From a virus (taxonomy: Duplodnaviria; Heunggongvirae; Uroviricota; Caudoviricetes): a stretch of DNA of 21,429 bases. The notes beneath the pieces are model-generated. The model was not told the origin of the DNA. It searched no databases and saw only the letters and a program-made list of their open reading frames with translations. Shown piece by piece: positions 1 through 17,836 of the stretch (position 1 is the stretch's first letter; each line of letters starts with the position of its first letter). The DNA is taken from IMG/VR virus record IMGVR_UViG_2609459820_000008; one strand, given 5' to 3'. A program made the position numbers and the translations under genes.

Positions 1-591
1 GACAAGCATCGTCTTGCCTTCCGCGCGTAACTCCCTCAACAGGCTGATGATTTTCGCTTCGGTTTTCACATCAACGCCGGTAAAAGGTTCATCCAGCAGG
101 ATCACATCACCCTGCTGTGCAATCGCTCTCGCCAGAAAGACGCGTTTCTTTTGTCCACCGGAAAGCTCGCCGATTTGTCGATGGCGAAAATCCACCATAT
201 CGACACGTTCCAGCGCATCGGTGACAATCTGACGATCCCTCTTTTTGGCTATACGCAACATACCCATGTGCCCATAGCGGCCCATCATCACCACATCTTC
301 CACTAGTACAGGAAATGACCAGTCAACCTCTTCTGACTGAGGGACGTAGGCAACCAGGTTTTTCTGTAGCGCCTGTCGCGTGGGAATACCCAGAACAGAT
401 ATCTTTCCGCTGGTCAGACGCACAAATCCCATAATCGCTTTAAACAACGTCGATTTTCCGGAACCGTTTACCCCAACCAGAGCGGCAATAGATCCACTTG
501 GTACTGTGAAGGATGCATCGCGCAGTGCTGTGTGCCCGTTACGCCAGGTGACAGTAACATCATTAACGACAATGCCCGCAGATTGCATCAT
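1..591 (-). CDS. sitB: Mn/Fe ABC transporter ATP-binding protein SitB, N-terminal part (gene continues past window start)
   Basis: Minus-strand translation from ATG at 589-591 gives [19 protein letters not shown]..., with Walker [13 protein letters not shown] signature LSGGQ and Walker B ILLDEP. Start overlaps the sitA stop (ATAATGATG), typical operon coupling. Plus-strand ORFs here are antisense shadows. Confidence 0.85.
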
Positions 592-1505
592 TATTTCTCC
601 CTTTTCCCGGCTTTAATTCCCTGTACCAGCGTACTGGTAGTAACCTTCAGAAGGTCGATATACGTAGGTACCGGGCCGTTTTCTGTGCTCAGGGAATCGA
701 CATAGAGTACACCGCCGTAGTGCGCGCCGGTTTCACGCGCAACCTGACGCGCTGGTTTATCGGAAATCGTACTCTCGCTAAAGACTGCCGGGATATGATT
801 TTTCTTCACCATATCAACAACCTTACGTACCTGCTGCGGCGTGCCTTGTTGATCGGCATTAATCGGCCACAGATAAAGCTCTTTTAGCCCCAAATCGCGT
901 GCGAGATAAGAAAAAGCCCCTTCACTGGTGACCATCCATCGCTGATTCTCAGGGAGTTCAGCAATCTGCTTACGCAGGGGGGCAAGGGTTTGGGTAATCT
1001 TGGCTTTATAAGTATCGGCATTACGTTGGTAGGTTTGTGCATTTGCCGGATCGTATTTTATCAACGCATCACGAATATTATCGACGTAAATCAGAGCATT
1101 ATCTGGCGACATCCAGGCATGGGGGTTAGGTTTGCCCTCATAGGGGCCTTCAGTGATCCCTACTGGCGTCACACCCGAAGAGACAATTACTTCTGGAACC
1201 CCATTAAGATGCTGGTAAAAGCGTTGGAACCACAATTCCAGATTCATACCATTGGCGAGAATCAGTTGTGCCCCCTGCGCACGTTTAATATCGCCAGGGG
1301 TAGGCTGATACTCATGAATTTCTGCACCGGGCTTGGTTATGGATGAGACTTCTGCAGCATCTCCAGCCACGTTTTTGGCCATATCTGCGATGATGGTAAA
1401 TGTTGTAATGACCTTGAATTTTTCAGTTGCACTCGCCTGAAATGCGATCGAGCAGGTGAGGGCGAGGCACCCCAAGAGCATGGTTACTTTTTTTATTGAG
1501 TACAT
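591..1505 (-). CDS. sitA: Periplasmic Mn(II)/Fe(II)-binding protein SitA of ABC transporter (cluster-9 substrate-binding protein)
   Basis: 304-aa ORF with signal peptide ([26 protein letters not shown]) and strong resemblance to recalled Salmonella/Shigella SitA ([49 protein letters not shown]). Preceded by MntR and Fur boxes. Confidence 0.9.
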
Positions 1506-1537
1506 AATTTAGTACCTATAGTGAGCAAAATTAGAAC

Positions 1538-1559
1538 AAACATAGCAACGGCTATGTTT
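1538..1559. promoter_or_regulatory. MntR operator (perfect palindrome AAACATAGC-AACG-GCTATGTTT) upstream of sitA
   Basis: Perfect 9-bp inverted-repeat arms seen directly, 33 bp upstream of the sitA start. Matches the recalled MntR box of enterobacterial sitA/mntH promoters. Confidence 0.75.
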
Positions 1560-1581
1560 TATAGCACAACCTATACAAAAT

Positions 1582-1600
1582 GAAAATGATTATCATTAGC
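1582..1600. promoter_or_regulatory. Fur box upstream of sitA
   Basis: GAAAATGATTATCATTAGC matches the 19-bp Fur consensus GATAATGATAATCATTATC at 16/19 positions, in the sitA promoter region. Confidence 0.7.
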
Positions 1601-1719
1601 AGCTTTGGGGCCCAAAACAGGGATTAGGTTGTTTCCTGCTGGCGACGCGTTATTGAGGAAAAAAGTAAGGCAGCTAGTAGGCTTTGAAATGACTTGATGA
1701 GGAAAATTGTTGATGGCAA

Positions 1720-1962
1720 AAATGGGGCAAAGCGCTGCAAAAGGGGCAAAAAAGGGGCAAAAAAAGAGTGGGTTATCGTAGCTTATTGTTGTCGCTGATG
1801 ATATTTAACACATTGAAAAATAAGTAAAATACTTATGAGTCAGAGAGTTGTGATTTTTGCCCTTACTTGTTCAGGTTGTATTGTTCTTTCTTTGTAATTT
1901 GTTGATTTTCTTTCATTATTTCAGTTCTCTGGTACTAAATGGGGCAAATTGGGGGCAAACTT
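1720..1962. repeat. Cluster of GGGGCAAA direct/inverted motif repeats beyond the integrase 3' end; candidate prophage attachment-site arm region
   Basis: Motif at about 1724, 1743, 1755 (direct), about 1853 (inverted, TTTTTGCCC) and twice at 1941-1957 (ATGGGGCAAATTGGGGGCAAAC). Position immediately past the int stop is where lambdoid attL/attR arm-type sites lie. Confidence 0.4.
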
Positions 1963-1967
1963 TGCAA

Positions 1968-3203
1968 CTACGATAACCGCGCATTCAACATGGCTACCTG
2001 TTCGTCGTTCATGTCATCAATCCACATACCGTAAATTTCATACACCATCTGCGCAGTTTCATGCCCCATCTGGCTGGCTATAAACGCCGGGTTCGCTCCT
2101 GCCGTCAACAGCCAGCAGGCAAAAGTATGCCGCGTATGGTACGGATTACGGCGGCGAATACCAGCACGTTTTACTGCTGCATTCCATCTCGCACCCAAAC
2201 TGCTTACCGAGTAATAAGGTTTCTGTTTTCCGTTACACACTCTGGGCATGAAAACAAAATGCAGTTTTTGCTTTTCGGTTCTGCCGTACTCCCGATGATA
2301 AAAAGTGATTTCGCTTTTGCGATGATGCCCGGTCAGTTTGTATTGCTCCTTCAGTGCTTCAAGAGCAGGCTGCAGTAGTGTTACTGTCCGGATCCCGGCA
2401 TTTGTTTTTGGGGGACCGAACATATCAAGTATCGTCAGGTTTCTTCTGACATTCACTATTCCCTTTTCGAGATCCACATCCTCCCACGCCAGAGCTGCCA
2501 GTTCCCCGTGACGAAGTCCTGAGTAAACGGCAAATTTCCACAAGTTCTGGCTCTGTCCTTTTTCACTTTCCATTAATGCATTGAATTCTGTTTTAGATAA
2601 CGGATCAGGCTTTATTCTGTTTCGCTGTAATTTTTTTACTCCTTCAAATGGTTTGGTTGATATAAATCCCGACTGATACGCAAAACGCAACAGCGAACAG
2701 AGCAGGGCGATATAGTTATCAACTGTGCGCACGGTTCTTCCTTTTTTGTTGGATCTTGGATTATCCAGGTAAAGCGTTTCTCCATGCAGCAGTTCATTCC
2801 GGTAGATTAAGATATCGCTATAACGAATATGTGATATCGGGGTACTTTCACAAATTATTATTCTGAGTGTTTTTAATTGTGATTTCGTTTTCTTCATTGT
2901 GTTTGTTGTTAACTCTGTCTCTTTAATTTTTGTCCAGATATCACAAAGTTCTCCGAACGTTTTTATGACTCTCGTTGTCACCATTTTTGCCCCAGTGCTG
3001 GACTGGGGAAAACGTCTTAAATACTCAAATTCACCGGAGTTTATTTCATGAACTATCAGCGATCTTAAATTTCCGGCCTTTTTAATATTACTGTTTGTAA
3101 TCTCCCAGCCTTTTAATGTTTCCCGACATCGTTTTCCTCGAAACATGAACCAGATGCGAATGTATCTACCTCTAATCTCGACACCTGTTGGTAATTTAGA
3201 CAT
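1968..3203 (-). CDS. intR: Rac-type prophage tyrosine integrase
   Basis: 411-aa ORF, same length as recalled K-12 IntR. C-terminal tyrosine-recombinase features (R..HTRHT..Y region: NPYHTRHTFACWLL...EIYGMW). Adjacent xis-like gene. Confidence 0.9.
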   Translation of the reverse strand: MSKLPTGVEIRGRYIRIWFMFRGKRCRETLKGWEITNSNIKKAGNLRSLIVHEINSGEFEYLRRFPQSSTGAKMVTTRVIKTFGELCDIWTKIKETELTTNTMKKTKSQLKTLRIIICESTPISHIRYSDILIYRNELLHGETLYLDNPRSNKKGRTVRTVDNYIALLCSLLRFAYQSGFISTKPFEGVKKLQRNRIKPDPLSKTEFNALMESEKGQSQNLWKFAVYSGLRHGELAALAWEDVDLEKGIVNVRRNLTILDMFGPPKTNAGIRTVTLLQPALEALKEQYKLTGHHRKSEITFYHREYGRTEKQKLHFVFMPRVCNGKQKPYYSVSSLGARWNAAVKRAGIRRRNPYHTRHTFACWLLTAGANPAFIASQMGHETAQMVYEIYGMWIDDMNDEQVAMLNARLS

Positions 3204-3204
3204 A

Positions 3205-3420
3205 TCATGAGTCTTTGATAAACTGATTTATCTTTGGATAGTTGTACCAGATAATCCCTCGCTTACTGTCTGGCTTCCCTAAAGGAGATACTCGTTTGAA
3301 GTGGAAGCCTTCCACCCAACAGTTCTGGCGGTATGCTTCAATTTGTCTGGCCCCCAGACCAGTGCGAAGCATCAGGCCGTATTCAACCATCCACTCTTCA
3401 TTAAAGATTACTTGTGCCAT
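3205..3420 (-). CDS. ydaQ: Excisionase-like small protein (YdaQ-like)
   Basis: 71 aa from [16 protein letters not shown]..., directly upstream of and co-oriented with int (stop 1 nt before int ATG). Length and position match the recalled Rac YdaQ. Confidence 0.7.
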
Positions 3421-3519
3421 CGCATCACCTCTGGCAGGCGCCAATGTTAGACTGAAATTGACGCCCGATGTTGATTATTAATAATCAGCTATGAAGTTTT
3501 AATTTGAATACAATGCAAT

Positions 3520-3708
3520 TCACGAGGACTGAAGTCTCTCGCAATTAAAATTTATCAGTTTTACTTTCTGCTCTCTGGAAACGGCTGCTTCTTTTTTACC
3601 TGAGAGCATTTTTTCGCATTCTGATTTCGTTAGTTTAGATTTTGAATATCTTGTCCAGTTAGTAGGAGTGCCACCTTCCTTTTCAATAGTGGCGGTAATT
3701 TTATACAT
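3520..3708 (-). CDS. ydaC: Small prophage protein, YdaC-like (DUF1187-type)
   Basis: ORF starting MYKITATIEKEGG... with a GGAGG Shine-Dalgarno 6 nt upstream; overlaps the ralR stop by 8 nt. Start choice within the 86-aa ORF is inferred from the RBS. Confidence 0.5.
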   Translation of the reverse strand: MYKITATIEKEGGTPTNWTRYSKSKLTKSECEKMLSGKKEAAVSREQKVKLINFNCERLQSS

Positions 3709-3895
3709 GAACACCTCCATTATTATTTCCAGTGGTTCGTTTATTCCATCTTTCGAGTGCTTCTTTTTCACTTCCACCATAACCGGTTCGGGATTCGCAT
3801 CCGTTACACTTCGCTCGGTAATATCCTGAAATGGCTTTCACCGTTACTGATGGACAACCACAAAATGGACATGGTTTAACATTGTCATATCTCAT
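3701..3895 (-). CDS. ralR: Restriction-alleviation/Lar-family zinc-ribbon protein RalR
   Basis: 64 aa from MRYDNVKPCPFCGCPSVTVKAISGYYRAKCNGCESRTGY... with CxxC...CxxC zinc ribbon. Sits just promoter-distal to recT in the leftward operon, as in Rac. Confidence 0.75.
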   Translation of the reverse strand: MRYDNVKPCPFCGCPSVTVKAISGYYRAKCNGCESRTGYGGSEKEALERWNKRTTGNNNGGVHV

Positions 3896-3951
3896 AATTT
3901 TTCTCATAAAAAATATTTCAAGTTGGCGGGGCATTACACCGCCAGACTGAA

Positions 3952-4761
3952 TTATTCCTCTGAATTATCGATTACACTGTATTCCCCGGTTAATACAGAG
4001 GAATCTGCAGGATCGATTGTCAGTGGTTCCTTTTCATCCATTGATACTGCACGCTGGATCTCAATTGATACGGGCAGATATTTGAACAGGCGACGAATAG
4101 CTGTTTTCTTTGCCATTTCTTCCCAGTGAGTTACCCACGGCCCGTTATTACCAGCTTTACTCTGGCTGCGCACCAGCTCAATCTGTCTGCGCGTCATAAC
4201 TTCAAACTGAGTACCTCCGTCTTTCAGTCTTGCGACAGCATAGACGTGGGTAACCGGGGCATCTTCGTTTTCTCCTGGGCGGTGTATTAACTTTTCATCA
4301 AGGCCAAATTCGAAATTAAATTCGTCACCTTCACGGACAACACGGGCTGACAGGCTGGCGATTTGACCTGAACGGCGAGCCAGATCAATCATGCCGCGAT
4401 AGCCAATGATTAGCTGAACGTTTTTTTTACCGCTCTTTTCGTTTTTATTACCAAAAGGCAGTAAATATGCATGACCGAGGGCGCTACCTGGCTCAAGTCC
4501 GAGCTGTGAACACTGTACGATTGCACTGACAAAACTCATAGTGTCACAGTTTCCTAACGCCGGAACTTTACGAATTTCTGTGGTGGCGATACGGATCATA
4601 CGTTCAGCCGTCATATGGCGTGGAAGAGCTGCTGCCAGTTGCTCTTTCATTGATGGCTGGTTAATAAAACTAATCACGTCGTTATTTTTAATTGCTGCTG
4701 GTGCACGGTTTTCCTGAGTTTTTTGCAGATCGGCTTTTGCGATTGGTGGTTGCTTAGTCAT
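3952..4761 (-). CDS. recT: RecT single-strand annealing protein
   Basis: 269 aa from [16 protein letters not shown]..., consistent with recalled Rac RecT. Start overlaps the recE stop by 8 nt. The longer 288-aa ORF-track start lacks an RBS. Confidence 0.9.
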
Positions 4762-7405
4762 TTGCATATTCCTTAGCCCAGCGGGGCAGTGATAACGTCT
4801 TAATAGCTGGCCATTCATCGGTATTGAGGCAGTCAGCCAGGGTTCGCAGATTGCGGTGATATTCCAGCTGACCTGCTAGTTTTGCTTCTTCGCCCATCAT
4901 GAAAATTTCAACCGGATAACGTCCGCATTCAATAGTTGTGCTGGCAACCAGAAAAACGAAAGTTGGCTGCACTCCAAACTGTGCTTCATAACCGTCACTG
5001 TAGAATGCATCCTGAACGTGATAGCGGTAGTCGTAATAAGCGGTTTTGAATCGTTGAATATCCGCCGTAGTTTTCACGTCCATGATCCAGTGAAATTCAG
5101 GGATAATTTTGTCCGGACGGCACCGACACAAAATTCCTGTTTCAGGATCTTCCCAGTAAATTGATGATTCAGCGTGTCCGGCGCTTTCAACAAGCCATTG
5201 CCCCAGCGGCAAAGCCATAACGCTTTGATACATCAGTTCAATTTTCCGGCCTTCTTCCGCAGTGATAACCATTTTTCCTGTGCTTGCGCATTCCATCAGA
5301 AACGCTTTCTCTTCTTCTTTTCCGGCGTTTGTACGGCGGTTAAATTCAGGTGCTACGATAAAGCGGTTACTGAATTCTTCCGGTTCAAGTACCCGGCAGT
5401 GGAAAGCGGTTCCTAAATCGAGCGTTTTTGTCTTTGTGGTGTCCACGGGGGCATTTTTACGCCACAAATACAGTGCCGGAGTATCAGCAATGTCATCGAG
5501 CTGAGACTTACTGACACCGGGACCTGCGTGGTAATTCTCATTCGAAATTCCGTAATAAATACCTGGCTCTATGTCTTCTACGATTACGGGATCTGCGACT
5601 TCGCCAGTTTCATCACTGCAATCGCGATGCGGATCGCTGCCAGCATTCTCATTGTGCGGATGTTCAGCGCCTTCCATTTCCTCCGGATCATTTTCCTTAG
5701 CTTCAACCTGATTCTCTTCATCGAATGTTTCCTGGTTTGTTGCGTCGCCCATCACCGCACCACAGTCAGGGCAGTTACCCCCGCCAGTCTGGCCGCAGGC
5801 ATTGAAGGCTATTTCCGGTTCCTGTTGCACTACTGGCTCAGGTTGTTTCATATCCGGGCTGGTTTTTTCCGTTTCTGGCTGGTTCTGGTACACAGAATCG
5901 CGAGTCTGGATCCCCTTAACCCATTTCGGATCGTTCGGGTCGCTAATTCCGTCAACAAATTCACCACGTGATGCAGCAAGCAATTTATCGGCATCGACAG
6001 GATTTTTTGATGGAATGTTTTTCCGAGCTTCATGGAGTTCTGCCCGCAGTTCCTGATATTTCGCATCAACAGAATTTACCTGTGACTGAGCATCCAGCGG
6101 CTGCGTGTCCTGATGATGTTTAGTTGCGTCCGGTTCCATTGTTTCAGCCTCTCCCTGTTCATCTGCCGTTGTTCCAGATGGTTGCAGTTTTTCTTCATCA
6201 TCCTGTTTTCCTTCTTCTGTTACTCGCTGCGGCATCGGGGCAGAGGAGCGACCGCAGGCAATATCCACGATTTCCGGATCAGGGTTGGCATGATCGGTTT
6301 CAGTCAGTACTTTGTTCAGATATGCAGTGACGTGAGCGGGGATGACCTCGATCCCAATTGGTGCTTCTTTCACGGACGCAACCACGATGGCGCGGGAATA
6401 ATCCAGCCCGCCAGGCATGGTGATGAATTTGTCGCGGAAAACAGAAAAGGGCGGTTTATTTTCAGCGATAATTTCCTCAATGCGTTTAGCGTGTGCCGGA
6501 TGAAGGTTATAGATGTCCACGTCCATTGAACGGGCCAGTACGCCAGTGGCTATATCGCGCGCCAGTGACGTCAGATCGTGGACGAAACCTTCGCCGCGAT
6601 CTGTGAGGTTCCCGCCGCCAGCATTAGCACCGGAAGCCGTGCGAGTGATGCGTGAAACACGATTCCCTTTTCGCCATTCTTTTGTCAGAAGACCGCGATC
6701 AATGTGTTCGGTATCCAGCCAGGCTGAAATGAAATTCTTAAATTCATAGGGCTGATGTTTTTTAGTGATAGAGAAAACTGCCTTAATTGCATCAGTCAGG
6801 CGGAGCAGGGCGGCATTATCCAGAGTTGTCGGTTCTGCCATGCCGCGTATGGCCAACAGCAGATTCTGGACATAGCTGTTTTCCTGATCCATCTCAAGAG
6901 CAGTAATGTGTTCGCGTTGTTCTCGGGTGGCATGATGCAGGTATTTCCGATCCCCGGCCGCATACGTAAAAATGTGCAGAAGACGCTGTGTGAACCGCAA
7001 AGTGGCTACAGAGACTTCGCAATCCTGGCAATCCTCGTGGGCGTCTGCCTGCGCGTTTTCTTCCTGGCCTCCCGCCAGTTCGTTGGTTTCTTGAGCATTA
7101 TCCTGGTGGTGAACGTCGTCTGGCGCTGCTCCCGGTTTTAGTTCCCATGTCATGGAGTCTTTGCTGAGTTGATAGCGTTCACTCCAGGTAAAATCGATCT
7201 CACCTTCAGGGGGAAGGTCATTAACGACAGGAAAATTTGTGGCAACAGCTTTAAAATAGTTGCTCAGTTTTTTACCTGACTTAACGATCAGGTAGTCCAG
7301 AGTGGCACAGGTCGATTCAAAATCGTCGCTTGCCCACAGGACGACGTCAGGTTCACCGGATGATTTTTTCGCTTTCCGTAACAGGAAGAGTGGTTTTGTG
7401 CTCAT
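4754..7405 (-). CDS. recE: RecE exonuclease VIII
   Basis: 883-aa ORF, acidic low-complexity central region and C-terminal nuclease domain, immediately upstream of recT. Matches Rac recET organisation. Confidence 0.9.
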
Positions 7406-7506
7406 TGTTTTTTAACCTCAACTCAGATTAAAATTCGTTTTGTTCAGTGAATGATCTTGCCGGATACACACTGTTCATAGCCTGCGCCATACGCAGGCTA
7501 TTTCTT

Positions 7507-7782
7507 TCAGATTTCACCTTTTAATTTCATTGCAATTAGAGTTGCCAGAAATTCGGCTTTTTTTTCTGCGGGCAGATTCTTTCCGGTATGCACCAGGCAC
7601 ATTTTTTTGACACCTTCGTGAAGTGTTTTAACGTTGCCTGATGGACCGTCGATATCAACCACAGTGAATGGGGTTTCTTTATTTTCTGTTTTAATCACGT
7701 AGCCAATACGCTTTCCTTCCAGATTAACCTCGTGAACAATGTCATCAGTAGTTACAACAGTGGCTTCATAACTGGTAATCAT
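7507..7782 (-). CDS. racC: RacC-like small prophage protein
   Basis: 91 aa from MITSYEATVVTTDD..., with AAGGAG RBS before the ATG at 7782. Upstream of recE in the leftward operon. Confidence 0.7.
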   Translation of the reverse strand: MITSYEATVVTTDDIVHEVNLEGKRIGYVIKTENKETPFTVVDIDGPSGNVKTLHEGVKKMCLVHTGKNLPAEKKAEFLATLIAMKLKGEI

Positions 7783-7857
7783 GTTTTTCTCCTTAATTAA
7801 GGTTGAGCGAATCCCTGCCATTGCTGGCATAAATTCAGTTTCGCATAGTCAGTTAAT

Positions 7858-8037
7858 TAAAGTTCGTGTGCCATCTGGTCTTTTTCGGCACAACTTTCAC
7901 TACAATATTTTTTCATTTCCGTCGTTTGGATAACTCCACGCATGAAATGAAGTGGTCTTTTGATACTTTTGCTTTCTTCAATTTCTTTATTGCAAAGGTG
8001 GTAAGCACATTTTATTTTCTTAGTCATCACCATGACT
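7858..8037 (-). CDS. ydaE: Cys-rich zinc-binding small protein YdaE-like (56 aa)
   Basis: Hand-translated minus-strand ORF not in the 60-aa track: [63 protein letters not shown] upstream. The plus-strand ORF 7866-8126 is its shadow. Confidence 0.7.
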
Positions 8038-8248
8038 CCGCCTTTACAGGTAAACCATTACGACCGAGGAAGACTTTAATCATGCAGTCAGTAATGCATG
8101 TTTTTGTGGTCAGGTTACGAATATAAAGTTTTCGCTTTTTAATATTGTTTGCCGAGGCAATATATGTCCGGCCTTCATGAAGAACATAGTCACCAGGAGT
8201 CACACACTGACGTGGTATTTCATCAGTTCCGAAGTGATGTGCAATCAT
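8027..8248 (-). CDS. kilR: KilR-like cell-division inhibitor (killing function of Rac)
   Basis: 73 aa from [32 protein letters not shown]..., GGAG RBS before ATG at 8248. Position matches kilR of Rac. Confidence 0.75.
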
Positions 8249-8522
8249 AATTATCTCCATTTTTACAAATGAACTTTGTTGATGCGGTGCCTGGTGCCTC
8301 CAGGTGACTGCAACCAGTTAACAATTACAGTCGGCTTTCCCACCCAAACCAATAAGGACTAACATGACTTTTAACTGTGCCGCGTGCGCTTAGCCGCATT
8401 CACCGCATCACAAAATTCACTTTAAAAAGGGCGGGCATCAGTCGAACTTCAAGAAAAAACTGATGCCGCCAAGACTACACATAGCAGTGTTGTTATCCAC
8501 AACCGGAGGCGCACTCCCACCA

Positions 8523-9013
8523 TTTAAATTTAACAGACAAGACCGACTCTTTATGGATATCGGAAATGCGCCTTCGTGTTGTGCCCGGTTTTATTTCACC
8601 ACCTCCGGGCTTTGGTGGTTTCTGCTATACCCCTACAGCGAGAATATAAATTTAACAGACAAGACCGACTCTTTATGGATATCGGAAATGCGCCTTCGTG
8701 TTGTGCCCGGTTTTATTTCACCACCTCCGGGCTTTGGTGGTTTCTGCTATACCCCTACAGCGAGAATATAAATTTAACAGACAAGACCGACTCTTTATGG
8801 ATATCGGAAATGCGCCTTCGTGTTGTGCCCGGTTTTATTTCACCACCTCCGGGCTTTGGTGGTTTCTGCTATACCCCTACAGCGAGAATATAAATTTAAC
8901 AGACAAGACCGACTCTTTATGGATATCGGAAATGCGCCTTCGTGTTGTGCCCGGTTTTATTTCACCACCTCCGGGCTTTGGTGGTTTCTGCTATACCCCT
9001 ACAGCGAGAATAT
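8523..9013. repeat. Perfect tandem repeat, 4 copies of a 122-bp unit (unit starts about 8526, 8648, 8770, 8892)
   Basis: Seen directly: the unit AAATTTAACAGACAAGACCGACTCTTTATGGATATCGG...CTACAGCGAGAATAT recurs head-to-tail with 122-nt period and no visible mismatches. The four staggered plus-strand ORFs in the track are frame-rotated copies of the same sequence. Each unit has a stem ACCACC-N10-GGTGGT. Confidence 0.95.
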
Positions 9014-9034
9014 TGAATTAATCCAAATAATGGA

Positions 9035-9187
9035 TTAGCAAGTATTTCTGGCAAGCCAGCGACGTGCGCCTGTTTCTGTTTTAAATGTTTTGCTTTTGGT
9101 ATACGTCATAGCAGTGAACGTTCCATCTTGGTTAGGGAACACGCCGCACACCATGGATTCGTTATTGCCGAGGTCGATTTTTTGCAT
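9035..9187 (-). CDS. ydaF: Small prophage protein, YdaF-like (50 aa)
   Basis: Hand-translated: MQKIDLGNNESMVCGVFPNQDGTFTAMTYTKSKTFKTETGARRWLARNTC. Lies downstream of the PL-like promoter and ydaG in the leftward operon. Below the ORF-track size cutoff. Confidence 0.5.
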   Translation of the reverse strand: MQKIDLGNNESMVCGVFPNQDGTFTAMTYTKSKTFKTETGARRWLARNTC

Positions 9188-9197
9188 TTTTCGCACC

Positions 9198-9332
9198 TCA
9201 CATCTTGTTGTTGCGGATAGAGGCTTCTGCTTGCCAGAGATCCCAGTCGTTGCTACGTAAAGCCTGCACAGCCTGGCTGTAAGTGATACCGCAACAATCC
9301 ATCAAATACTGAACTACTTCGTAATGCACCAT
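9198..9332 (-). CDS. ydaG: Small prophage protein, YdaG-like (44 aa)
   Basis: Hand-translated: MVHYEVVQYLMDCCGITYSQAVQALRSNDWDLWQAEASIRNNKM, with GGAGAG RBS upstream. First gene of the leftward operon. Confidence 0.5.
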   Translation of the reverse strand: MVHYEVVQYLMDCCGITYSQAVQALRSNDWDLWQAEASIRNNKM

Positions 9333-9501
9333 CTTATCTCTCCCCTTAACGCCGGGTGGCGGAACTAACTGCTGCACTGCAAAATTTGAATCCCGCCGTC
9401 ATGTTCATACGCCTCGGGCTGGCTACTTAACCCCTGACCACTGCCTGGTAACTCGAAGTATTGCCTGGCGTTCTGTGGGGCGGGGTGGGTGGTATGCTGG
9501 A

Positions 9502-9546
9502 ACTATAGGTAATGCCTAATTGATTGTCAATAGGCTATGCCTAATG
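9502..9546 (-). promoter_or_regulatory. PL-like leftward early promoter (-35 TTGACA, 17-bp spacer, -10 TATAGT on minus strand) with overlapping repressor operator
   Basis: Reverse complement of 9502-9530 gives TTGACA-N17-TATAGT. The adjacent half-sites GCCTAAT and ATAGGCTATGCCTAAT are an inverted copy of the operators right of racR. Confidence 0.6.
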
Positions 9547-9640
9547 TTTTAAGCGTAACCTAATAGGTGATGGCGACTGGAGAAAGTGATGGGGGGGTTA
9601 AATAACGGAATCCAGGAGTTTTCCGTCAGACCATATAAGT

Positions 9641-10117
9641 TTAAGTTCCAGTTTTTGTGATGTTCTGGCTTTTCCGTTCAGATTCTAGAGCTTTCAGATA
9701 CTTACCCACTTTCATTTCCATCGCTGCTATGTAGGCGCGAACATCGTGGTCAACCCAATCTGGTTCTGTAGCATTTCCAGATAACAGGAAAGCTACAATC
9801 GCTCTTATTTCATCAGAGGCTGCTTGATAAAGGTTGTTTATATCTAAAAGTTCACTTTTTGTATCTGGATTGGTGGGGGTTGGTATGGGGTATTCGTTAA
9901 GCCCCCAATGCTCTGGACCAACAACATCAGCAAAGAAACGCCATAATTCTGGAAGTTTATCTTTACTTATGGAGCCTTTCTTAATCCAGTCATAGATTGA
10001 TGGTGGTTGGACTTTGAAGTGGCGTGCGACCTCCGCCTTTGATTTGACGGATCCCGATGCGATTTTTTTGTTAATGGCCTGCTCTATCGCTCGGCCTAAG
10101 TCTTTACCACTAAGCAT
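9641..10117 (-). CDS. racR: Prophage repressor RacR (HTH DNA-binding protein)
   Basis: 158 aa (MLSGKDLGRAIEQAINKK...KAEVARHFKVQPPSIYDWIKKG), AGGAG RBS. Divergent from ydaS with operator-rich intergenic region, as in Rac. Confidence 0.85.
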   Translation of the reverse strand: MLSGKDLGRAIEQAINKKIASGSVKSKAEVARHFKVQPPSIYDWIKKGSISKDKLPELWRFFADVVGPEHWGLNEYPIPTPTNPDTKSELLDINNLYQAASDEIRAIVAFLLSGNATEPDWVDHDVRAYIAAMEMKVGKYLKALESERKSQNITKTGT

Positions 10118-10143
10118 TGCTTAATATTCTCCTATGCTCATTG

Positions 10144-10213
10144 CATTAGGCAATCCCTACTCTCATTGTATTAGGCATAGCCTATTGACATTTGTATTAG
10201 GCGTCGCCTAATA
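10144..10213 (+). promoter_or_regulatory. PR-like rightward promoter (-35 TTGACA 10185-10190, -10 TAATAT 10208-10213) plus three operator sites (ATTAGGC half-sites; perfect palindrome ATTAGGCGTCGCCTAAT 10195-10211)
   Basis: Operator motifs at 10144-10153, 10169-10184 and 10195-10211 in the 123-bp racR-ydaS divergent region. The palindrome overlaps the -10 element. Confidence 0.6.
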
Positions 10214-10240
10214 TCTCTGTGTGTTTTTGGAGTTCATTCG

Positions 10241-10537
10241 ATGAAAAAAGAGAACTATTCATTCAAGCAAGCTTGTGCTGTTGTCGGTGGGCAAACAGCA
10301 ATGGCTAGGCTTTTAGGTGTATCACCTCCAAGCGTAAATCAATGGATCAAAGGGGTACGTCAATTGCCTGCCGAGAGATGTCCAGCAATTGAACGTGCAA
10401 CAAGAGGTGAGGTGCTGTGCGAAGAACTTCGTCCTGATATTGACTGGTCATATTTACGACGTTCGGCATGTTGTTCGCAGAATATGTCAGTGAAGCAACT
10501 AAATGACAGTAACAAATCCTCATTTGATCATACCTGA
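10241..10537 (+). CDS. ydaS: Cro-like HTH protein YdaS
   Basis: 98 aa with HTH (QTAMARLLGVSPPSVNQWIKG), first gene rightward of the repressor, GGAG RBS. Confidence 0.8.
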   Translation: MKKENYSFKQACAVVGGQTAMARLLGVSPPSVNQWIKGVRQLPAERCPAIERATRGEVLCEELRPDIDWSYLRRSACCSQNMSVKQLNDSNKSSFDHT

Positions 10538-10559
10538 AACATCAAGAGGCAAATGATTC

Positions 10560-10982
10560 ATGAAAATCAAGCATGAGCACATCGAATCGGTGTTGTTTGC
10601 CCTGGCAGCCGAAAAAGGGCAGGCATGGGTAGCCAATGCAATTACTGAAGAATATCTGCGCCAGGGGGGCGGCGAATTGCCCCTGGTTCCAGGCAAGGAC
10701 TGGAACAATCAGCAGAATATCTATCACCGTTGGTTGAAAGGTGAAACGAATGCGCAAAGGGAAAAAATTCAGAAGCTGATCCCAGCAATTCTGGCAATCC
10801 TTCCGCGCGAGCTGCGTCACCGACTCTGCATCTTCGATACCCTGGAACGCCGTGCATTACTGGCGGCGCAGGAAGCGTTAAGTACGGCAATTGATGCGCA
10901 TGATGATGCAGTCCAAGCCGTTTACCGGAAAGCGCATTTCAGCGGCGGCGGGTCTTCCGACGATTCTGTCATTGTTCATTAA
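10560..10982 (+). CDS. ydaT: YdaT-like protein (toxic partner of YdaS in Rac)
   Basis: 140 aa (MKIKHEHIESVLFALAAEKGQAWV...), immediately downstream of ydaS. Confidence 0.8.
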   Translation: MKIKHEHIESVLFALAAEKGQAWVANAITEEYLRQGGGELPLVPGKDWNNQQNIYHRWLKGETNAQREKIQKLIPAILAILPRELRHRLCIFDTLERRALLAAQEALSTAIDAHDDAVQAVYRKAHFSGGGSSDDSVIVH

Positions 10983-10994
10983 GCAAAAGTTTTC

Positions 10995-11852
10995 ATGCTG
11001 TTTGTGCTTATTCTAAGCCACCGGGCAGCATCATACGGGGCAATTATGGCCGCATTACCATACATGCAACTGTACATAGCTGATTACCTGGCTGACACCA
11101 TGCATTTGTCAGCAGAGGAGCATGGTGCGTATTTGTTGCTGATGTTCAATTACTGGCAAACAGGAAAGCCAATACCTAAAAACAGGCTGGCAAAAATTGC
11201 CCGTCTGACTAACGAGCGATGGGCTGATGTTGAACCATCCTTGCAGGAGTTTTTTTGCGATAACGGCGAGGAATGGGTGCATCTTCGGATTGCGGAAGAT
11301 CTGGCATCAGTCAGGGAAAAATTAACCAAAAAATCAGCCGCAGGAAAAGCATCTGTTCAGGCCAGAAGAAGCAGAAAGGAAGCAGATGTTCAAACAAAAC
11401 AAGAGAGAAATTTAACAGGTGTTCAAACAGATGTTGAAGTGGTGTTTGAACATGATGTCAACACAAAGGCAACTAATAAAGATACAGATAAAGATCTAAA
11501 AACAGATCCCCCCCTAAATCCCCCCCGGGGGAATCGAGGTGTCAAAAAGTTTGACCCTCTGGATATTGCTTTGCCGAACTGGATTTCTGTCTCGCTTTGG
11601 CGTGAGTGGGTTGAATTTCGCCAGGCATTGCGAAAACCGATTCGAACGGAGCAGGGCGCTAACGGGGCGATACGGGAGCTGGAAAAATTCCGCCAGCAGG
11701 GTTTTTCACCTGAGCAGGTGATTAGACACAGCATCGCCAATGAATACCAGGGCTTGTTCGCGCCGAAAGGTGTTCGACCTGAGACGTTACTCCGACAGGT
11801 TAACACCGTCTCGTTACCGGATAGTGCGATCCCGCCAGGCTTCAGGGGGTAA
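10995..11852 (+). CDS. ydaU: YdaU-like replication-associated protein (DUF1376)
   Basis: 285-aa ORF preceding the DnaC-like gene. An alternative internal start (MAALPYMQLY) cannot be excluded. Confidence 0.7.
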   Translation: MLFVLILSHRAASYGAIMAALPYMQLYIADYLADTMHLSAEEHGAYLLLMFNYWQTGKPIPKNRLAKIARLTNERWADVEPSLQEFFCDNGEEWVHLRIAEDLASVREKLTKKSAAGKASVQARRSRKEADVQTKQERNLTGVQTDVEVVFEHDVNTKATNKDTDKDLKTDPPLNPPRGNRGVKKFDPLDIALPNWISVSLWREWVEFRQALRKPIRTEQGANGAIRELEKFRQQGFSPEQVIRHSIANEYQGLFAPKGVRPETLLRQVNTVSLPDSAIPPGFRG

Positions 11853-11858
11853 CTGTCC

Positions 11859-12605
11859 ATGAAAAATATTGCGACAGGCGACGTTCTTGAACGTATCCGC
11901 AGACTGGCCCCGTCACATGTAACCGCGCCATTCAAGACGGTAGCGGAGTGGCGCGAGTGGCAACTTTCCGAAGGCCAGAAACGTTGTGAGGAGATCAACC
12001 GTCAGAATCGTCAGTTGCGGGTGGAAAAAATTCTGAATCGCTCTGGCATCCAGCCATTGCACCGCAAATGCTCGTTTTCGAATTACCAGGTGCAGAACGA
12101 AGCGCAGCGATACGCGTTGAGTCAGGCGAAATCCATCGCTGATGAACTGATGACCGGGTGTACAAATTTTGCGTTCAGCGGAAAACCTGGTACCGGGAAG
12201 AACCACTTAGCGGCAGCTATCGGGAATCGCCTGCTGAAAGACGGTCAGACAGTGATTGTGGTTACCGTGGCTGATGTTATGAGTGCCCTGCACGCCAGCT
12301 ATGACGATGGGCAGTCAGGCGAAAAATTTTTGCGGGAACTGTGCGAAGTGGATCTGCTGGTTCTTGATGAAATTGGCATTCAGCGCGAGACAAAAAACGA
12401 GCAGGTGGTGCTGCACCAGATTGTTGATCGCCGGACAGCGTCGATGCGCAGCGTGGGGATGCTGACAAACCTGAACTATGAGGCCATGAAAACATTGCTC
12501 GGCGAGCGGATTATGGATCGCATGACCATGAACGGCGGACGCTGGGTGAATTTTAACTGGGAGAGCTGGCGTCCGAATGTCGTCCAGCCAGGAATTGCGA
12601 AGTGA
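11859..12605 (+). CDS. ydaV: DnaC-like AAA+ helicase loader / replication protein
   Basis: 248 aa with Walker [16 protein letters not shown] and Walker B LLVLDEIG, in phage replication-module position. Confidence 0.85.
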
Positions 12606-12627
12606 TTTTTACCGGGAGGAAATTTTA

Positions 12628-13389
12628 ATGGAGACTGTTTTTGACGCACTGAAAGCAATGGGAAAAGCCACGTCGGTAGAACTGGCTGCGCGACTTGATA
12701 TCAGTCGTGAAGAGGTACTGAACGAGCTGTGGGAGCTGAAAAAGGCTGGTTTCGTTGATAAAAGCGTATACACCTGGCGTGTGGCTGATAACAACGTTCA
12801 GCAGGAACAGCCAGAGCAGGCAGAACCGCCGGAAGAAACCACCACGGCAACAGTCGCGAAAATTTCGGAGTGCGATTTAACTGCGACGATTGAACAACGT
12901 GGACCACAAACGGCGGATGAGTTGGCTACATGGTTCGGTACCACATCACGCAAAGTGGCTTCAACGCTGGCAATGGCAATCAGCAAAGGTCGTCTGATTC
13001 GCGTTAATCAGAACGGTAAATTTCGTTACTGCATACCGGGCGATAATTTACCAGCAAAGCCGAAAGCTGCATCGGTAACGGAAACTGATTTTAAAGCCTT
13101 TCCTCAGCCAGCAGATGTTGCGTTACCAGTACAGGAAGCTGCAACACAGGAAGATATTAAAACAGAAACTGTGGCGGACATTGTGCAGTCGCTGCCATCG
13201 TTTACTGAAACGCGAGCTGATGACCTGATTTTGCCATCGCTGCATATGGCAAACCGCGAACTGCGTCGGGCGAAAAATCATGTCCAGAAGTGGGAGCGAG
13301 TCTGCGCCGCGCTGCGGGAGCTGAACAAGCACCGGGATATTGTTCGACAGATTGCTGATTCTTCCCGCCGTGTTGTATCGGAAAAGTGA
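12628..13389 (+). CDS. Prophage protein with N-terminal winged-helix-like domain (YdaW-like position), function unknown
   Basis: Start chosen at [13 protein letters not shown]... (GGGAGG RBS 7 nt upstream) rather than the ORF-track start at 12577. Acidic Q/E/P-rich linker and C-terminal domain. Confidence 0.55.
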
Positions 13390-13404
13390 TTGCCGGAGGC
13401 GCTT

Positions 13405-13836
13405 ATGGCAAAAGTATTTACACAAGAAGAGCGGGAAAAAATTAAAGGGCAGGTTGTTGAGCTAGTACGCCGGAGTGGACGCGAGACGTTACGACAACTG
13501 GAGGCCAAGACAGGTGCGACAAGATATCTGATGAGCGTTCTCGCCAGAGAGCTGGTTGCCAGTGGCGATGTATACAACTCTGGTTACGGGTTATTCCCGT
13601 CTGAACAGGCTCGTAAGGACTGGCAAAATGCCCGCAAAAAACTATCCAGGGCAAAGGTGAAGAAACCATCTGTGGTTGATCCGGACCTTATCTGGTCATT
13701 ACCAGACGGAGAAATACGCCGCTACGACAGGCGTCTGAACATAATCTGTCGCGAGTGCCGGAAGAGTGAAGTTATGCAGCGTGTGCTGGCGTTTTATCAG
13801 AATGGTTTTCGAGAGAGGCTTGGAGATCAGGGATGA
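13405..13836 (+). CDS. Hypothetical prophage protein (about 143 aa)
   Basis: ORF with GGAGG RBS before ATG at 13405 (MAKVFTQEEREKIKGQVVELV...). Backbone-like GC content. No recognised motifs. Confidence 0.5.
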   Translation: MAKVFTQEEREKIKGQVVELVRRSGRETLRQLEAKTGATRYLMSVLARELVASGDVYNSGYGLFPSEQARKDWQNARKKLSRAKVKKPSVVDPDLIWSLPDGEIRRYDRRLNIICRECRKSEVMQRVLAFYQNGFRERLGDQG

Positions 13837-14029
13837 ATAGAACGATGAAGGATGGAAGCTACATATTCTCGGTACTAAGATTTATTTTTCTGACACAAAA
13901 TGACCATTTGGCGTTACATAATCCCAAAAAAACGTATCAAAAATCTCAAAATGCGTTACGATTAGAGAGTATTTTGATTCTGCGTGCTCATTTTTTGATT
14001 GCTGTGGCTTTTTGTTGTGGGAGTGTTGA

Positions 14030-15184
14030 ATGGATTATTTATCAGAAGTGTTAAAAATCATTGAAGGTGCAACAAAGGCAAATGCTTCGATGGCTAGTAA
14101 TTATGCTGGGTTGCTGGCAGATAAGCTCGAACAAAAAGGGGAGGTCAAGCAAGCCAGAATGATAAGAGAAAGGTTGCTTAGAGCTCCCCAGGCGTTGGCA
14201 GGAGCTCAAAGGGCTGGAGGTGGGATATCTCTGGGCTCATTACCGGTAGATATTGATAGTCGACTCAACACTGTTGATGTCAGTTATCCTAAATTAGACA
14301 GTTCAGAGATTTTTCTGCCTGCAGCAATCAGTACCCGTGTTGAAGAGTTTATCACTAATGTTCAACGTTATGATGAGTTTGTTAAAGCTGATGCAGCATT
14401 GCCGAGTCGTATGCTCGTGTATGGAAAGCCAGGAACAGGTAAGACTATGTTATCTAAGTACATCGCTACCCGCTTAGATTTTCCACTTCTTACAGTGCGT
14501 TGCGATACTTTGATTAGTAGTTTATTGGGACAAACCAGCAAAAATCTTAGACAGGTTTTCGATTATGTAATGCAGAGGCCATCAGTGCTTTTTTTAGACG
14601 AATTTGATGCTTTAGCTGGAGCAAGAGGTAATGAGAGAGATATAGGTGAGCTTCAGCGAGTTGTCATTTCACTATTGCAGAATATGGATGCGGCATCAGA
14701 GGATACGGTAATTATTGCCTCAACTAACCATGAGCAACTTCTGGATCCTGCAATCTGGAGGCGATTTAGCTTCAGAATTCCAATGCCTCTGCCTGACATA
14801 CATCAGAGAGAGTTAATTTGGAAAAATCGTTTAAAGAATATGATATGTAGCGATCTAGATTTAAGTGATTTATCAAGAAAATCGGAAGGATTATCCGGAG
14901 CAATAATTGAACAGGTGAGCTTGGATGCACGTAGGGATGCAGTTATTGAAGGTGCAAGTGTGATAAATCACCATAAATTGTATAGGCGTTTGTATCTTGC
15001 TCAATCGCTTATGGAAGGTGTAAATTTAAGCACTTACGAAGATGAAATTCGTTGGTTACGTTCTAAAGATAAAAAATTATTTTCTATCAGAGTTCTTGCT
15101 AATTTGTACAAACTTACATCAAGAGTAATTTCAAACATTCTGAAGGAGTCAGGAGCATATGAGCAGAAGGGGTACACAGTTTAG
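14030..15184 (+). CDS. AAA+ ATPase (classic AAA domain) - first gene of a two-gene low-GC cargo; IetA-like candidate defence ATPase
   Basis: 384 aa. Walker A GKPGTGKT (aa 132-139), Walker B VLFLDEFDAL (aa 186-195), sensor-1 IIASTNH, arginine RRF. GGGAG RBS. Sampled stretches of the cargo are about 27-32% GC versus roughly 50% flanking. Confidence 0.9.
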   Translation: MDYLSEVLKIIEGATKANASMASNYAGLLADKLEQKGEVKQARMIRERLLRAPQALAGAQRAGGGISLGSLPVDIDSRLNTVDVSYPKLDSSEIFLPAAISTRVEEFITNVQRYDEFVKADAALPSRMLVYGKPGTGKTMLSKYIATRLDFPLLTVRCDTLISSLLGQTSKNLRQVFDYVMQRPSVLFLDEFDALAGARGNERDIGELQRVVISLLQNMDAASEDTVIIASTNHEQLLDPAIWRRFSFRIPMPLPDIHQRELIWKNRLKNMICSDLDLSDLSRKSEGLSGAIIEQVSLDARRDAVIEGASVINHHKLYRRLYLAQSLMEGVNLSTYEDEIRWLRSKDKKLFSIRVLANLYKLTSRVISNILKESGAYEQKGYTV

Positions 15185-17423
15185 TAACGCAAAAGTTACA
15201 AACCCAATGTTAAGAATCCCTTTTTCCAGTAGTGACTTGGGTGCAATAGTAAACGCTGGCGGTGGGGCAAAGGTATTGGTTGATGTAACAGCCGAATATA
15301 GACAAGGGCTAGTAAGAAATTTAACAACCAGTAAACATTATTTAGAATCCAAACTTTCAGAGTACCCTGGAAGCTTGGGTACTTTGGTTTTCAAATTAAG
15401 AGACCAGGGAATAGCCAAAACGCATAGGCCGAACAAAATTGCTCAAGAGGCTGGATTGCAAAATGCCGGTCATGCCAAAATAGATGAAATGTTGGTTGCT
15501 GCTCATGCCGGCTGTTTTGACGTATTAGAGTCAGTCATTTTACATCGGAATATTAAAGCGATTTTGGCTAATCTAAGCGCGATTGAGCGCATTGAACCTT
15601 GGGATGAGAATAGGAAGGTTCCAGGAGGCACTGATGGTTTGTTTGAATCATCAAACATCCTTGTACGACTATTTGAGTACACAGGTGAAGATGCAACTTA
15701 CAACAACTATGAAAACGTTATTTCTATATTAGAACAACACGGAGTTAAATATGATGAGATTAGACAAAAATGTGGTCTTCCCTTATTAAGGATAATGGAT
15801 TTATCCCCAAATGATAGATATATATTAGACATTCTCATTGATTACCCGGGTATAAGAACGTTAATTCCTGAACCAAAATATTCAGCATTCCCGGTTAGTG
15901 TAAGTGATTCTGTTGGCATTGAAACAAATAGCTTTCCCGTACCATCAGAAGAATTACCCATTGTTGCTGTATTTGACACTGGGGTAAGCCCCATCGCGGC
16001 AACAATTACTCCTTGGGTAGTGAGTAGGGAAACATACGTAATTCCTCCTGATACGAGTTATGAACATGGGACTATGGTGTCTTCATTGATATCAGGCGCT
16101 CATTTTTTAAATGACAATCATCCATGGATTCCTGATACAAAATCTAAAATCCATGATGTTTGTGCCTTAGATGAAAATGGATCTTATATATCAGATTTAA
16201 TTCTGAGGCTAGCAGATGCTGTAAATAAAAGACCAGATATAAAAGTCTGGAATTTGTCTTTGGGAGGCGGACCATGTAATGAGCAGACGTTTAGTGATTT
16301 TGCGATGGAGTTAGATCGGCTCAGCGATAAATTTGGTATTTTGTTTGTAGTTGCTGCAGGTAATTATGTAGATGAACCTATACGTACATGGCCAAATCCT
16401 GATCCGCTTGGAGGTGCTGATTTAATTTCCTCTCCTGGAGAGTCAGTCCGAGCACTAACAGTTGGTTCAGTTTCTCATATGGAAGCTAATGATGCTTTAA
16501 GTGAAATTGGAACACCGACACCATATACTCGTCGTGGCCCTGGGCCTGTATTTACTCCAAAGCCAGATATAATCCATGCTGGCGGTGGGGTTCATAGACC
16601 TTGGAATGTAGGAGCAAGCAGTTTAAAGGTCGTAGGGCCAGATAATAGGCTTTGCTCTAATTTTGGTACTAGTTTTGCTGCTCCAATTGTGGCAAGTTTA
16701 GCTGCGCATACATGGCAGAGAATAGCCACTAATACAGACTTTAATGTTTCACCATCATTGATTAAAGCATTATTAATTCATTCCGCTCAATTATCTTCTC
16801 CTGATTACTCGCCAAGTGAAAGACGCTATTTGGGAGCGGGAATTCCTAATGAAGTTATTGAGACCTTATATGATAGTGATGATAGGTTTACTCTGATTTT
16901 CCAAACATTCTTGGTTCCTGGGGTGAGGTGGAGAAAGGATAACTATCCCATACCATCGGCACTTATTCAAAATGGAAAATTTAAAGGTGAGATTGTAATT
17001 ACTGCTGCATATGCACCACCACTGAACCCTAATGCCGGCAGTGAATATGTTCGCGCGAACGTAGAGCTAAGTTTTGGCTTAATTGAGAATAATACTATAA
17101 AAGGAAAAGTGCCTATGGAAGGAGAAAACGGTCAATCTGGATATGAGAGAGCTCAAATTGAGCATGGTGGAAAGTGGTCACCAGTAAAAATTCATCGCAA
17201 GGCATTTAATAAAGGAATTACTTCGGGTAACTGGGCTCTTCAGGCTAAAACAACGTTGAGAGCGAATGAACCGGCCTTAATGGAGCCTTTACCTGTAACT
17301 ATTGTAGTAACTTTAAAATCATTAGATGGAAACACACAAGTTTATGCTGATGGCGTAAGAGCTTTAAATGCTAATAACTGGGCTCACTATCCATTGCCTG
17401 CTCGTGTGCCAGTTTCCGTATAA
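15159..17423 (+). CDS. Subtilisin-like serine peptidase (S8 family) with extra N- and C-terminal domains; IetS-like candidate defence protease
   Basis: 754 aa. Catalytic motifs in S8 order: Asp in VAVFDTGVS (about aa 273), His in YEHGTMVSS (about aa 303), oxyanion Asn in VVAAGNY (about aa 402), Ser in GTSFAAPIVA (about aa 505). Start overlaps the ATPase 3' end by 26 nt with AGGAG RBS (translational coupling). Low GC. Confidence 0.9.
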   Translation: MSRRGTQFSNAKVTNPMLRIPFSSSDLGAIVNAGGGAKVLVDVTAEYRQGLVRNLTTSKHYLESKLSEYPGSLGTLVFKLRDQGIAKTHRPNKIAQEAGLQNAGHAKIDEMLVAAHAGCFDVLESVILHRNIKAILANLSAIERIEPWDENRKVPGGTDGLFESSNILVRLFEYTGEDATYNNYENVISILEQHGVKYDEIRQKCGLPLLRIMDLSPNDRYILDILIDYPGIRTLIPEPKYSAFPVSVSDSVGIETNSFPVPSEELPIVAVFDTGVSPIAATITPWVVSRETYVIPPDTSYEHGTMVSSLISGAHFLNDNHPWIPDTKSKIHDVCALDENGSYISDLILRLADAVNKRPDIKVWNLSLGGGPCNEQTFSDFAMELDRLSDKFGILFVVAAGNYVDEPIRTWPNPDPLGGADLISSPGESVRALTVGSVSHMEANDALSEIGTPTPYTRRGPGPVFTPKPDIIHAGGGVHRPWNVGASSLKVVGPDNRLCSNFGTSFAAPIVASLAAHTWQRIATNTDFNVSPSLIKALLIHSAQLSSPDYSPSERRYLGAGIPNEVIETLYDSDDRFTLIFQTFLVPGVRWRKDNYPIPSALIQNGKFKGEIVITAAYAPPLNPNAGSEYVRANVELSFGLIENNTIKGKVPMEGENGQSGYERAQIEHGGKWSPVKIHRKAFNKGITSGNWALQAKTTLRANEPALMEPLPVTIVVTLKSLDGNTQVYADGVRALNANNWAHYPLPARVPVSV

Positions 17424-17435
17424 CAACTATATAAA

Positions 17436-17468
17436 TCAAACCCGCTGTAGCGGGTTTGATTTATTTGT
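17436..17468 (+). terminator. Rho-independent terminator after the protease gene
   Basis: Hairpin AAACCCGC-TGTA-GCGGGTTT followed by GATTTATTTG, 13 nt after the protease stop. Confidence 0.65.
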
Positions 17469-17836
17469 GGGTGTGTTTTATAAAAATACCGCCCATACAC
17501 AACAAAATACAAAAAGTATTATAGATAAAAAAGGAACGTAATGTGCAGATTTGTTGTTTTCCATATTTACTCACCTTAATATGATTAACCCTGATAGGGT
17601 TGTTATTTCAGCGGTTTTCAAATGAGATATTATGGTGATCTGGCAGATTTGCATAACATTAAAATTTAATTTGTTTAACCGCTTTTAATAATAAGCGTTG
17701 TTTGTATCCCAGCAATCTGTTTTTTGGTTTTTATTCCATTAAGGTGGGGCTTTACACTGGAGCCAGTTTATTTATACTTCATACGTCAGCCTGAACAACT
17801 GGCATCTGCTGCGCTGCGCCATCGAGAGATTAAGAA

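Follow-up and report, generated by a model that had tools for sequence, protein, structure and literature searches.

The stretch of DNA analyzed here (21,429 nucleotides; IMG/VR virus record IMGVR_UViG_2609459820_000008, class Caudoviricetes), referred to below as the window, opens in a metal-transport operon and continues through an integrase gene into the early region of a phage. The genes at this end are all encoded on the minus strand:

1–593, minus strand: sitB, 3' part; the open reading frame continues beyond the window end.
591–1505, minus strand: sitA, periplasmic Mn/Fe-binding protein; a 304-aa open reading frame with a Pfam match to ZnuA (289.9 bits).
1968–3203, minus strand: int, encoding an IntR-type tyrosine integrase (Int) of 411 aa; Pfam Arm-DNA-bind_2 and Phage_integrase.
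3205–3444, minus strand: XisR-type excisionase; Pfam DUF1233 putative excisionase, annotated as xisR in homologous records.

The window itself holds just sitA and part of sitB; sitA–D are annotated in near-identical records, and sitB is annotated in the stretches of strains ERP001 and WP9-S17-ESBL-11 that are 99.4–99.8% identical to the window. Int is 100% identical to the intR product of many E. coli Rac-like prophages. Its N-terminal Arm-DNA-bind_2 domain (PF12167) spans residues 5–69 (89.8 bits, against a cut-off of 22) and its Phage_integrase domain residues 205–391 (81.7 bits), both by Pfam. Beyond int, Pfam identified the excisionase, a DUF1187 open reading frame, recT and recE. The early-region order, intR-xisR-ralR/RalA-recT-recE...racR-ydaS/T/U/V, is of the Rac type according to Pfam, Rfam (RalA, 220 bits) and the RefSeq annotation of a 99.97% identical prophage. 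The sitA start (1505) and the int end (1968), both on the minus strand, leave a gap of 462 bp (1506–1967), in line with the roughly 460 bp given in an earlier note on this DNA.

A search of 5426 complete E. coli genomes split these 462 bp into pieces with different histories. Positions 1506 to ~1693 travel with sit, plasmid copies included. Positions 1714–1909, on the other hand, match the right end of the K-12 Rac prophage, and 1867–1967 match the ttcA/intR junction. The gap consists of two unrelated modules that abut, namely the sit promoter region and a complete Rac-type attP, and is without any host DNA. The features on the sit side are the following:

1506–1693, minus strand: sit regulatory region and right end of the mobile sit cassette; homology to other sit copies ends here.
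1538–1559, no strand assigned: MntR-box-like palindrome AAACATAGC-AACG-GCTATGTTT, perfect (9+4+9), kept in plasmid and icd-prophage sit copies.
1582–1600, no strand assigned: Fur-box-like sequence GAAAATGATTATCATTAGC, largely conserved in other sit copies.

The end of sit homology falls at 1693 for the copy in an icd-integrated prophage and at 1690 for copies in lambda-like phages, while sit copies on ColV-type plasmids remain homologous to about position 1720 at 83–86% identity. The palindrome and the Fur-like box lie 33–95 bp upstream of sitA and are candidates for the MntR and Fur boxes that the earlier note had placed in the gap. The palindrome resembles the E. coli MntR box, and GAAAATGATTATCATTAGC agrees with the Fur consensus at 16 of 19 positions. 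When the gap was scanned for promoters and terminators, the sole "terminator" returned was the MntR-like palindrome. The same sit cassette is also found at the att-proximal end of the icd-integrated prophage and in lambda-like phages. Carriage of sit as a lambdoid-prophage moron has already been described for the LF82 prophage Perceval (PMC9928086), and Fisher et al. (2009), at least as summarised in PMC7545054, present sit as an unstable, multi-site "PAI sit". The sitABCD operon that enters the window is best viewed as a mobile cargo ("moron") cassette, transcribed leftwards and with predicted Fur/MntR control, a reading that we hold to be probable.

The anatomy of the attachment site was worked out by a four-way alignment of the window with K-12 Rac attL, K-12 Rac attR and the empty attB of strain WB61, in which ttcA is directly followed by uspF and sit is absent. 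The alignment yielded these elements:

1712–1866, plus strand: P arm of a Rac-type attP; 97.4% identical to the phage side of K-12 Rac attR and absent from the empty attB.
1867–1892, plus strand: core identity block TTGTTCAGGTTGTATTGTTCTTTCTT, 26 bp, containing the crossover region; the sole block common to all four sites.
1893–1967, plus strand: P' arm of attP; matches the phage side of K-12 Rac attL (ttcA–intR) except for one base.
1863–1916, minus strand: replacement 5' end of ttcA carried by the phage, MKENQQITKKEQYNLNK*; in attP it forms a stub of 17 codons.

The core, which the earlier note had considered impossible to fix without the other end of the element, is placed by this alignment at 1867–1892 and falls in ttcA codons about 9–17. 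Comparison of the stub with the K-12 TtcA start (MQENQQITKKEQYNLNKLQ...) indicates that the phage supplies a replacement N-terminus. Integration of Rac at the 5' end of ttcA, as described in the literature (PMC4632033, PMC6379469), fits these observations, and attL forms of the identical phage lie in ttcA. The core is shared by attP, attB, attL and attR, and in the attP form it has phage-specific DNA on either flank. Since these flanks, the P arm and the P' arm, both consist of phage DNA, the site is classed as attP rather than attL, and the int–sitA gap is on this comparative evidence the seat of an intact attP.

The earlier note had instead drawn the prophage boundary in the gap. Under that reading the gap would be the left prophage/host junction (attL), with sit either chromosomal or lying between int and the true border. 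The direction of int, which reads towards the gap like the integrase gene of a lambda-type attL, would suit such a junction, but the DNA to the left of the core (1712–1866) is a phage arm from the far end of K-12 Rac, true attL forms match the window from 1867 only and then run into ttcA, and the empty site between ttcA and uspF has no sit. We consider the boundary reading refuted, its remaining probability being negligible. The same empty site disposes of the suggestion that the phage had integrated right beside a resident sit operon.

Complete Rac-like prophages of ~52 kb are present in many E. coli, and the one carried by WP9-S17-ESBL-11 accounts for both halves of the window. It is ordered ttcA, attL, intR, early genes, iteA/iteS, lysis, trkG, head, tail, tail fibres, sitDCBA, attR, uspF. 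Window positions 1–1909 are 99.84% identical to the attR end of this prophage, and positions 1867–21429 are 99.97% identical to its attL end; many E. coli genomes carry the attL form, with a 100% match to the window beginning at 1867. Since the halves of the window match opposite ends of one prophage, sitABCD is cargo that the integrated phage carries at its far (right) end, as the first of two options in the earlier note had it. Once the phage is integrated, ~52 kb separate sit from int, and sit is found at the attR end beside uspF. By its sequence, the window is exactly the product expected of Int-mediated attL x attR recombination of a WP9-S17-ESBL-11-type prophage. It shows the phage in its un-integrated topology, either as a circular or packaged genome or at the point where two tandem copies meet. 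Strain Jnd12 provides an example of the latter, with Rac prophages in tandem and an attP between them. Such arrangements are rare: among the 5426 complete E. coli genomes, P-O-P' followed by an intact int was found in five, none of which has sit on the left; ERP001 has sit and attP followed by a truncated int. The order sit-attP-int was also detected in S. flexneri SFBU1023 and in several IMG/VR contigs. In the phage collection searched, the whole window was absent as such, the best record beginning at the core (1867), and when viral contigs were scanned by protein, the 80 prophage ends obtained were nearly identical, most of them stopping three bases past the int stop, and so were of no use for studying divergence.

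Both arms of this attP carry copies of a short motif, GGGGCAAA. Seven copies are present in the 21.4-kb window as compared with 0.97 expected, and none of 100 shuffles reached seven. Five perfect copies are located in the gap, at 1724, 1743, 1754, 1941 and 1952, all on the plus strand, and together with degenerate in-register copies (ATGGCAAA at 1713–1720 and GCTGCAAA at 1734–1741) they form two groups:

1713–1761, plus strand: array ATGGCAAA, GGGGCAAA, GCTGCAAA, GGGGCAAA, GGGGCAAA; five phased units spaced 11, 10, 9 and 11 bp apart; candidate P-arm Int sites.
1941–1959, plus strand: pair GGGGCAAA-N3-GGGGCAAA, 11 bp start to start; candidate P' arm-type Int sites.

The nearest copy is only 8 bp from the int stop. 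At least six copies in direct and inverted orientation had previously been reported for the gap. The count comes down to five, and the direct orientation holds for all of them; the inverted orientation does not stand, as the sole inverted copy is a 7/8 match (AGGGCAAA, 1856–1863, minus strand) that is lost in diverged relatives (strain 106 and phage PHB10). This copy was rejected as a site and is probably a chance match, as is a perfect inverted copy inside int (2986–2993), which is gone even where Int identity is 95%. A GGGGCA conserved at int nucleotide 1137, in sequence coding for the catalytic domain, was put down to codon conservation; the codons there are presumably those for Leu-Gly-His (CTG GGG CAT).

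As the array lies 210–460 bp upstream of sitA along with the pair, and repeats are still found beside sit in the attR form, they could in principle be regulatory elements of the sit promoter. The earlier note had named just this, their presence at the sit promoter in prophage-free contexts, as a finding that would count against arm sites. When checked, the repeats were absent upstream of sit on plasmids, in the icd-integrated prophage and in lambda-like phages, and the K-12 Rac prophage, which has no sit, does have them. A promoter function of this kind is refuted and can be given next to no weight.

The conservation of the motif was followed in the P-arm array among phages with ttcA-type cores plus two distant phages, and at the int 3' end in a wider set of relatives. 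One attR has an overall identity of 80%, with ~93% conservation in the array block compared with ~70% for the remaining P arm. Phage PHB10, a free phage genome with an Int that is 69% identical, has a four-unit P array and a two-unit P' pair at equivalent distances, while its P arm outside the array is essentially unalignable to the window. Across nine Int lineages (69–95% identity), no non-coding blocks are invariant except two GGGGCA hexamers; relatives in Enterobacter, Erwinia, Hafnia and Citrobacter have diverged from the int stop to the ttcA start and keep the hexamer pair, 11 bp apart. All relatives examined, with Int identities as low as 42%, have a GGGGCA-N5-GGGGCA pair at the int 3' end. 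These include relatives that target rstB rather than ttcA (Int 49–52% identity), with the same 11-bp spacing, and the free phages mEp460_ev081 and CobraSix (Int 42–43% identity), in which a second motif-bearing site is found ~200 bp away, as a full pair in CobraSix and as GGGGCA and GGGACA 11 bp apart in mEp460. In a set of 78 loci (400 kb), the pair was found at the int end of 23 loci whose Int is related; its single other occurrence is oppositely oriented and distant from int. S. flexneri copies that have decayed retain one unit of the array, and their int is disrupted.

This pattern also bears on whether the repeats need a sequence-specific binder at all, since they might be mere phased A-tracts conferring intrinsic curvature, or slippage-prone simple sequence. 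The GGGGCAAAAAA units do recur every 11 bp and their copy number differs among strains. However, it is GGGGCA that is invariant across lineages, the A-run being replaced by TAATA, CCACA, TGGAT and others; because the invariant part is GGGGCA and not the A-run, the comparison argues against a mere A-tract bend, and we regard this explanation as highly improbable. The repeats are units unlike the core that recur on each of the two arms, and their conservation follows the integrase lineage. They belong to the attachment site and appear arm-like by comparison across relatives, as the earlier note had proposed, and the GGGGCA units are very probably integrase arm-binding sites.

Which protein recognizes them is a separate matter, because excisionase genes travel with int and the co-inheritance of the motif with the int lineage alone therefore cannot separate Int from Xis. 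Five units phased at one helical turn look like cooperative Xis arrays, which are known from lambda and P22, and the units could accordingly be bound by XisR or by a host architectural protein instead of the integrase. XisR does bind a 294-bp attR fragment that includes the array (PMC4632033). In the gel shifts of that study (Liu et al. 2015), XisR shifted the AttR fragment but not AttM, and mapping of the primers places the whole array in both fragments. The unbound 291-bp AttM control thus holds the entire array, so that XisR is an unlikely binder, as far as one published gel shift can tell. The motif is moreover also found on the P' arm, hard by the int stop, where Xis sites are unexpected, and it is Int that carries a dedicated arm-binding domain. 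Taking both sides together, recognition by XisR or a host protein is unlikely, and we infer that Int is, with good probability, the protein that binds the motif. Searches of the literature returned no report of IntR binding to, or recombination at, GGGGCA motifs; a query for GGGGCA with "arm-type" gave nothing relevant.

Under the preferred reading, the N-terminal arm-binding domain of Int would bind the GGGGCA units and its C-terminal domains the core. Int would then bridge arms and core in a lambda-like intasome and exchange strands with ttcA. In the prophage that results, the P' arm and int remain beside ttcA as attL, giving ttcA a new N-terminus, and the P arm and sitABCD are ~52 kb away beside uspF as attR.

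These results correct a mis-drawn border: sitABCD, encoding a virulence-associated Mn/Fe transporter, lies inside a complete and apparently mobile Rac-type phage and moves with it. They also suggest a signature, a GGGGCA-N5-GGGGCA pair at the int 3' end plus a second cluster 100–200 bp beyond the core, that marks candidate attP arms for an enterobacterial integrase clade comprising Rac IntR, PHB10, mEp460, CobraSix and the rstB-targeting relatives. Such a signature should be useful for delimiting prophages of this kind and for recognising tandem or circular forms. All components are of known kinds, and the understanding of lambda-type recombination is unchanged; the sole new element would be the candidate arm-site code of the IntR integrase clade, for which a literature search found no description. 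The arrangement also invites a speculation about regulation. Whether in the attP or the attR form, the candidate Fur/MntR operators are only ~115–175 bp beyond the outermost candidate arm site, and in the attP form int and sitABCD are co-directional and 462 bp apart. Metal-dependent repressor binding, or read-through transcription between sit and int, might influence intasome assembly; we give this very little credence, but if true it would couple iron/manganese status to the integration or excision of a phage carrying a metal-uptake virulence factor.

The closest general model for the locus is the lambda attP, which is laid out as P1-H1-P2-X1-X2-F-H2-C-O-C'-H'-P'1-P'2-P'3 and served by a heterobivalent Int. 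As in lambda, transcription of int runs towards a neighbouring attP of about 250 bp, Int combines an N-terminal arm-binding domain with a catalytic domain and is encoded beside attP, a repeated motif unlike the core is found on both arms with contiguous, helically phased copies after the int stop, and a cargo region lies beyond the P arm. In contrast to lambda, the candidate arm motif is GGGGCA rather than the lambda arm consensus, and the arm-binding domain is Arm-DNA-bind_2 (PF12167) and not of lambda's Pfam family. There are two P' copies and a contiguous P array of three to five units here, whereas lambda has 3 + 2 separated copies. The core, finally, falls within the 5' part of a host coding sequence, for which the phage supplies a replacement N-terminus.

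Among systems that carry sit, the locus resembles LF82 Perceval and the "PAI sit" in that sit is placed beside tail-fibre genes at that end of a lambdoid prophage which is proximal to att, and the same cassette is found at several chromosomal sites. It differs from them in its carrier, a ttcA-integrating Rac-type phage, and in that no more than about 20 bp lie between the cassette and the outer edge of the P arm. With known tandem dilysogens (attL-prophage-attP-prophage-attR; Jnd12, and ERP001 with a truncated second copy) it shares an intact P-O-P' junction followed by int, but in contrast to the complete E. coli genomes that have P-O-P' with an intact int (5/5426) it has sit on the left. The nearest relative is K-12 Rac itself, which has the same core, the same P and P' arms (97–98% identity), the same GGGGCAAA units and the same gene order int-xis-ralR/RalA-recT-recE. 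K-12 Rac is a 23-kb defective remnant with pinR/ynaE as its right-end cargo, whereas the phage in the window is of the full ~52 kb with sitABCD in that place; and where K-12 Rac holds its arms apart, with attL in ttcA and attR beside ttcC/uspF, the window holds them joined as attP.

Three loci keep the order sit-attP-int with an eroded array of candidate Int arm sites: one in S. flexneri SFBU1023 and two others (L102, L166 and L168). In each, the P-arm array is down to one GGGGCAAA, and sequence comparison attributes this loss to a deletion of about 30 bp between repeats. The match to int is also broken in all three, from the equivalent of window position 2609 to 3032. This arrangement looks like an immobilised remnant. 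In E. coli ERP001 (L001), a frameshifted fragment annotated as 'metal ABC transporter permease' is found at 22048-22648 of that locus, past a truncated second int and immediately to the left of uspF, and may be what is left of sitD from another, second copy that carried sit and has been deleted. On plasmid p109 (L008, 2700-2720), weak similarity of the plasmid sit copies persists up to ...AATGGCAAAG, which reaches slightly into the Rac P arm's first degenerate unit. This similarity hints that plasmids may have acquired their sit cassette from a Rac-type phage.

The window carries additional cargo and regulatory features:

3524-3702, + strand, RalA antitoxin sRNA (Rfam match, 220 bits)
14030-17423, + strand, a 384-aa and a 754-aa ORF (annotation of a near-identical RefSeq prophage)
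19619-19772, + strand, two phage-borne tRNAs, tRNA-Thr(TGT) and tRNA-Gly(TCC), that lie upstream of the lysis genes

RalA overlaps an ORF on the opposite strand (3520-3780, -) and is antisense to the ralR/DUF1187 region, with which it forms the type I toxin-antitoxin pair of Rac. The RefSeq counterparts of the 384-aa and 754-aa ORFs are labelled anti-phage ATPase IteA and S8 peptidase IteS, respectively; these iteA/iteS ORFs are defence cargo in the replication/late-regulation region.

A repeat scan detected a perfect 122-bp tandem repeat (8525-9013; 4.0 copies, 100% identity) in the early region, with kilR-side genes on one side and the repressor on the other. Sequence comparison found fewer copies in the WP9-S17-ESBL-11 prophage, although the rest is 99.97% identical. 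The scan also detected a 25-bp unit (10137-10210; 2.9 copies, 79% matches) within the divergent racR/ydaS intergenic region, and these units are plausibly repressor operators.

More distant relatives of IntR (49-52% identity) were found in Enterobacter spp. and Pantoea (L103-L105, L107 and L108, at approximately 3745-3830), immediately upstream of rstB, a gene identified by its match to the RstB equivalog profile (789 bits). The GGGGCA pair falls within the final int codons in all five loci. By analogy with ttcA, these integrases would insert at the 5' end of rstB and replace that end.
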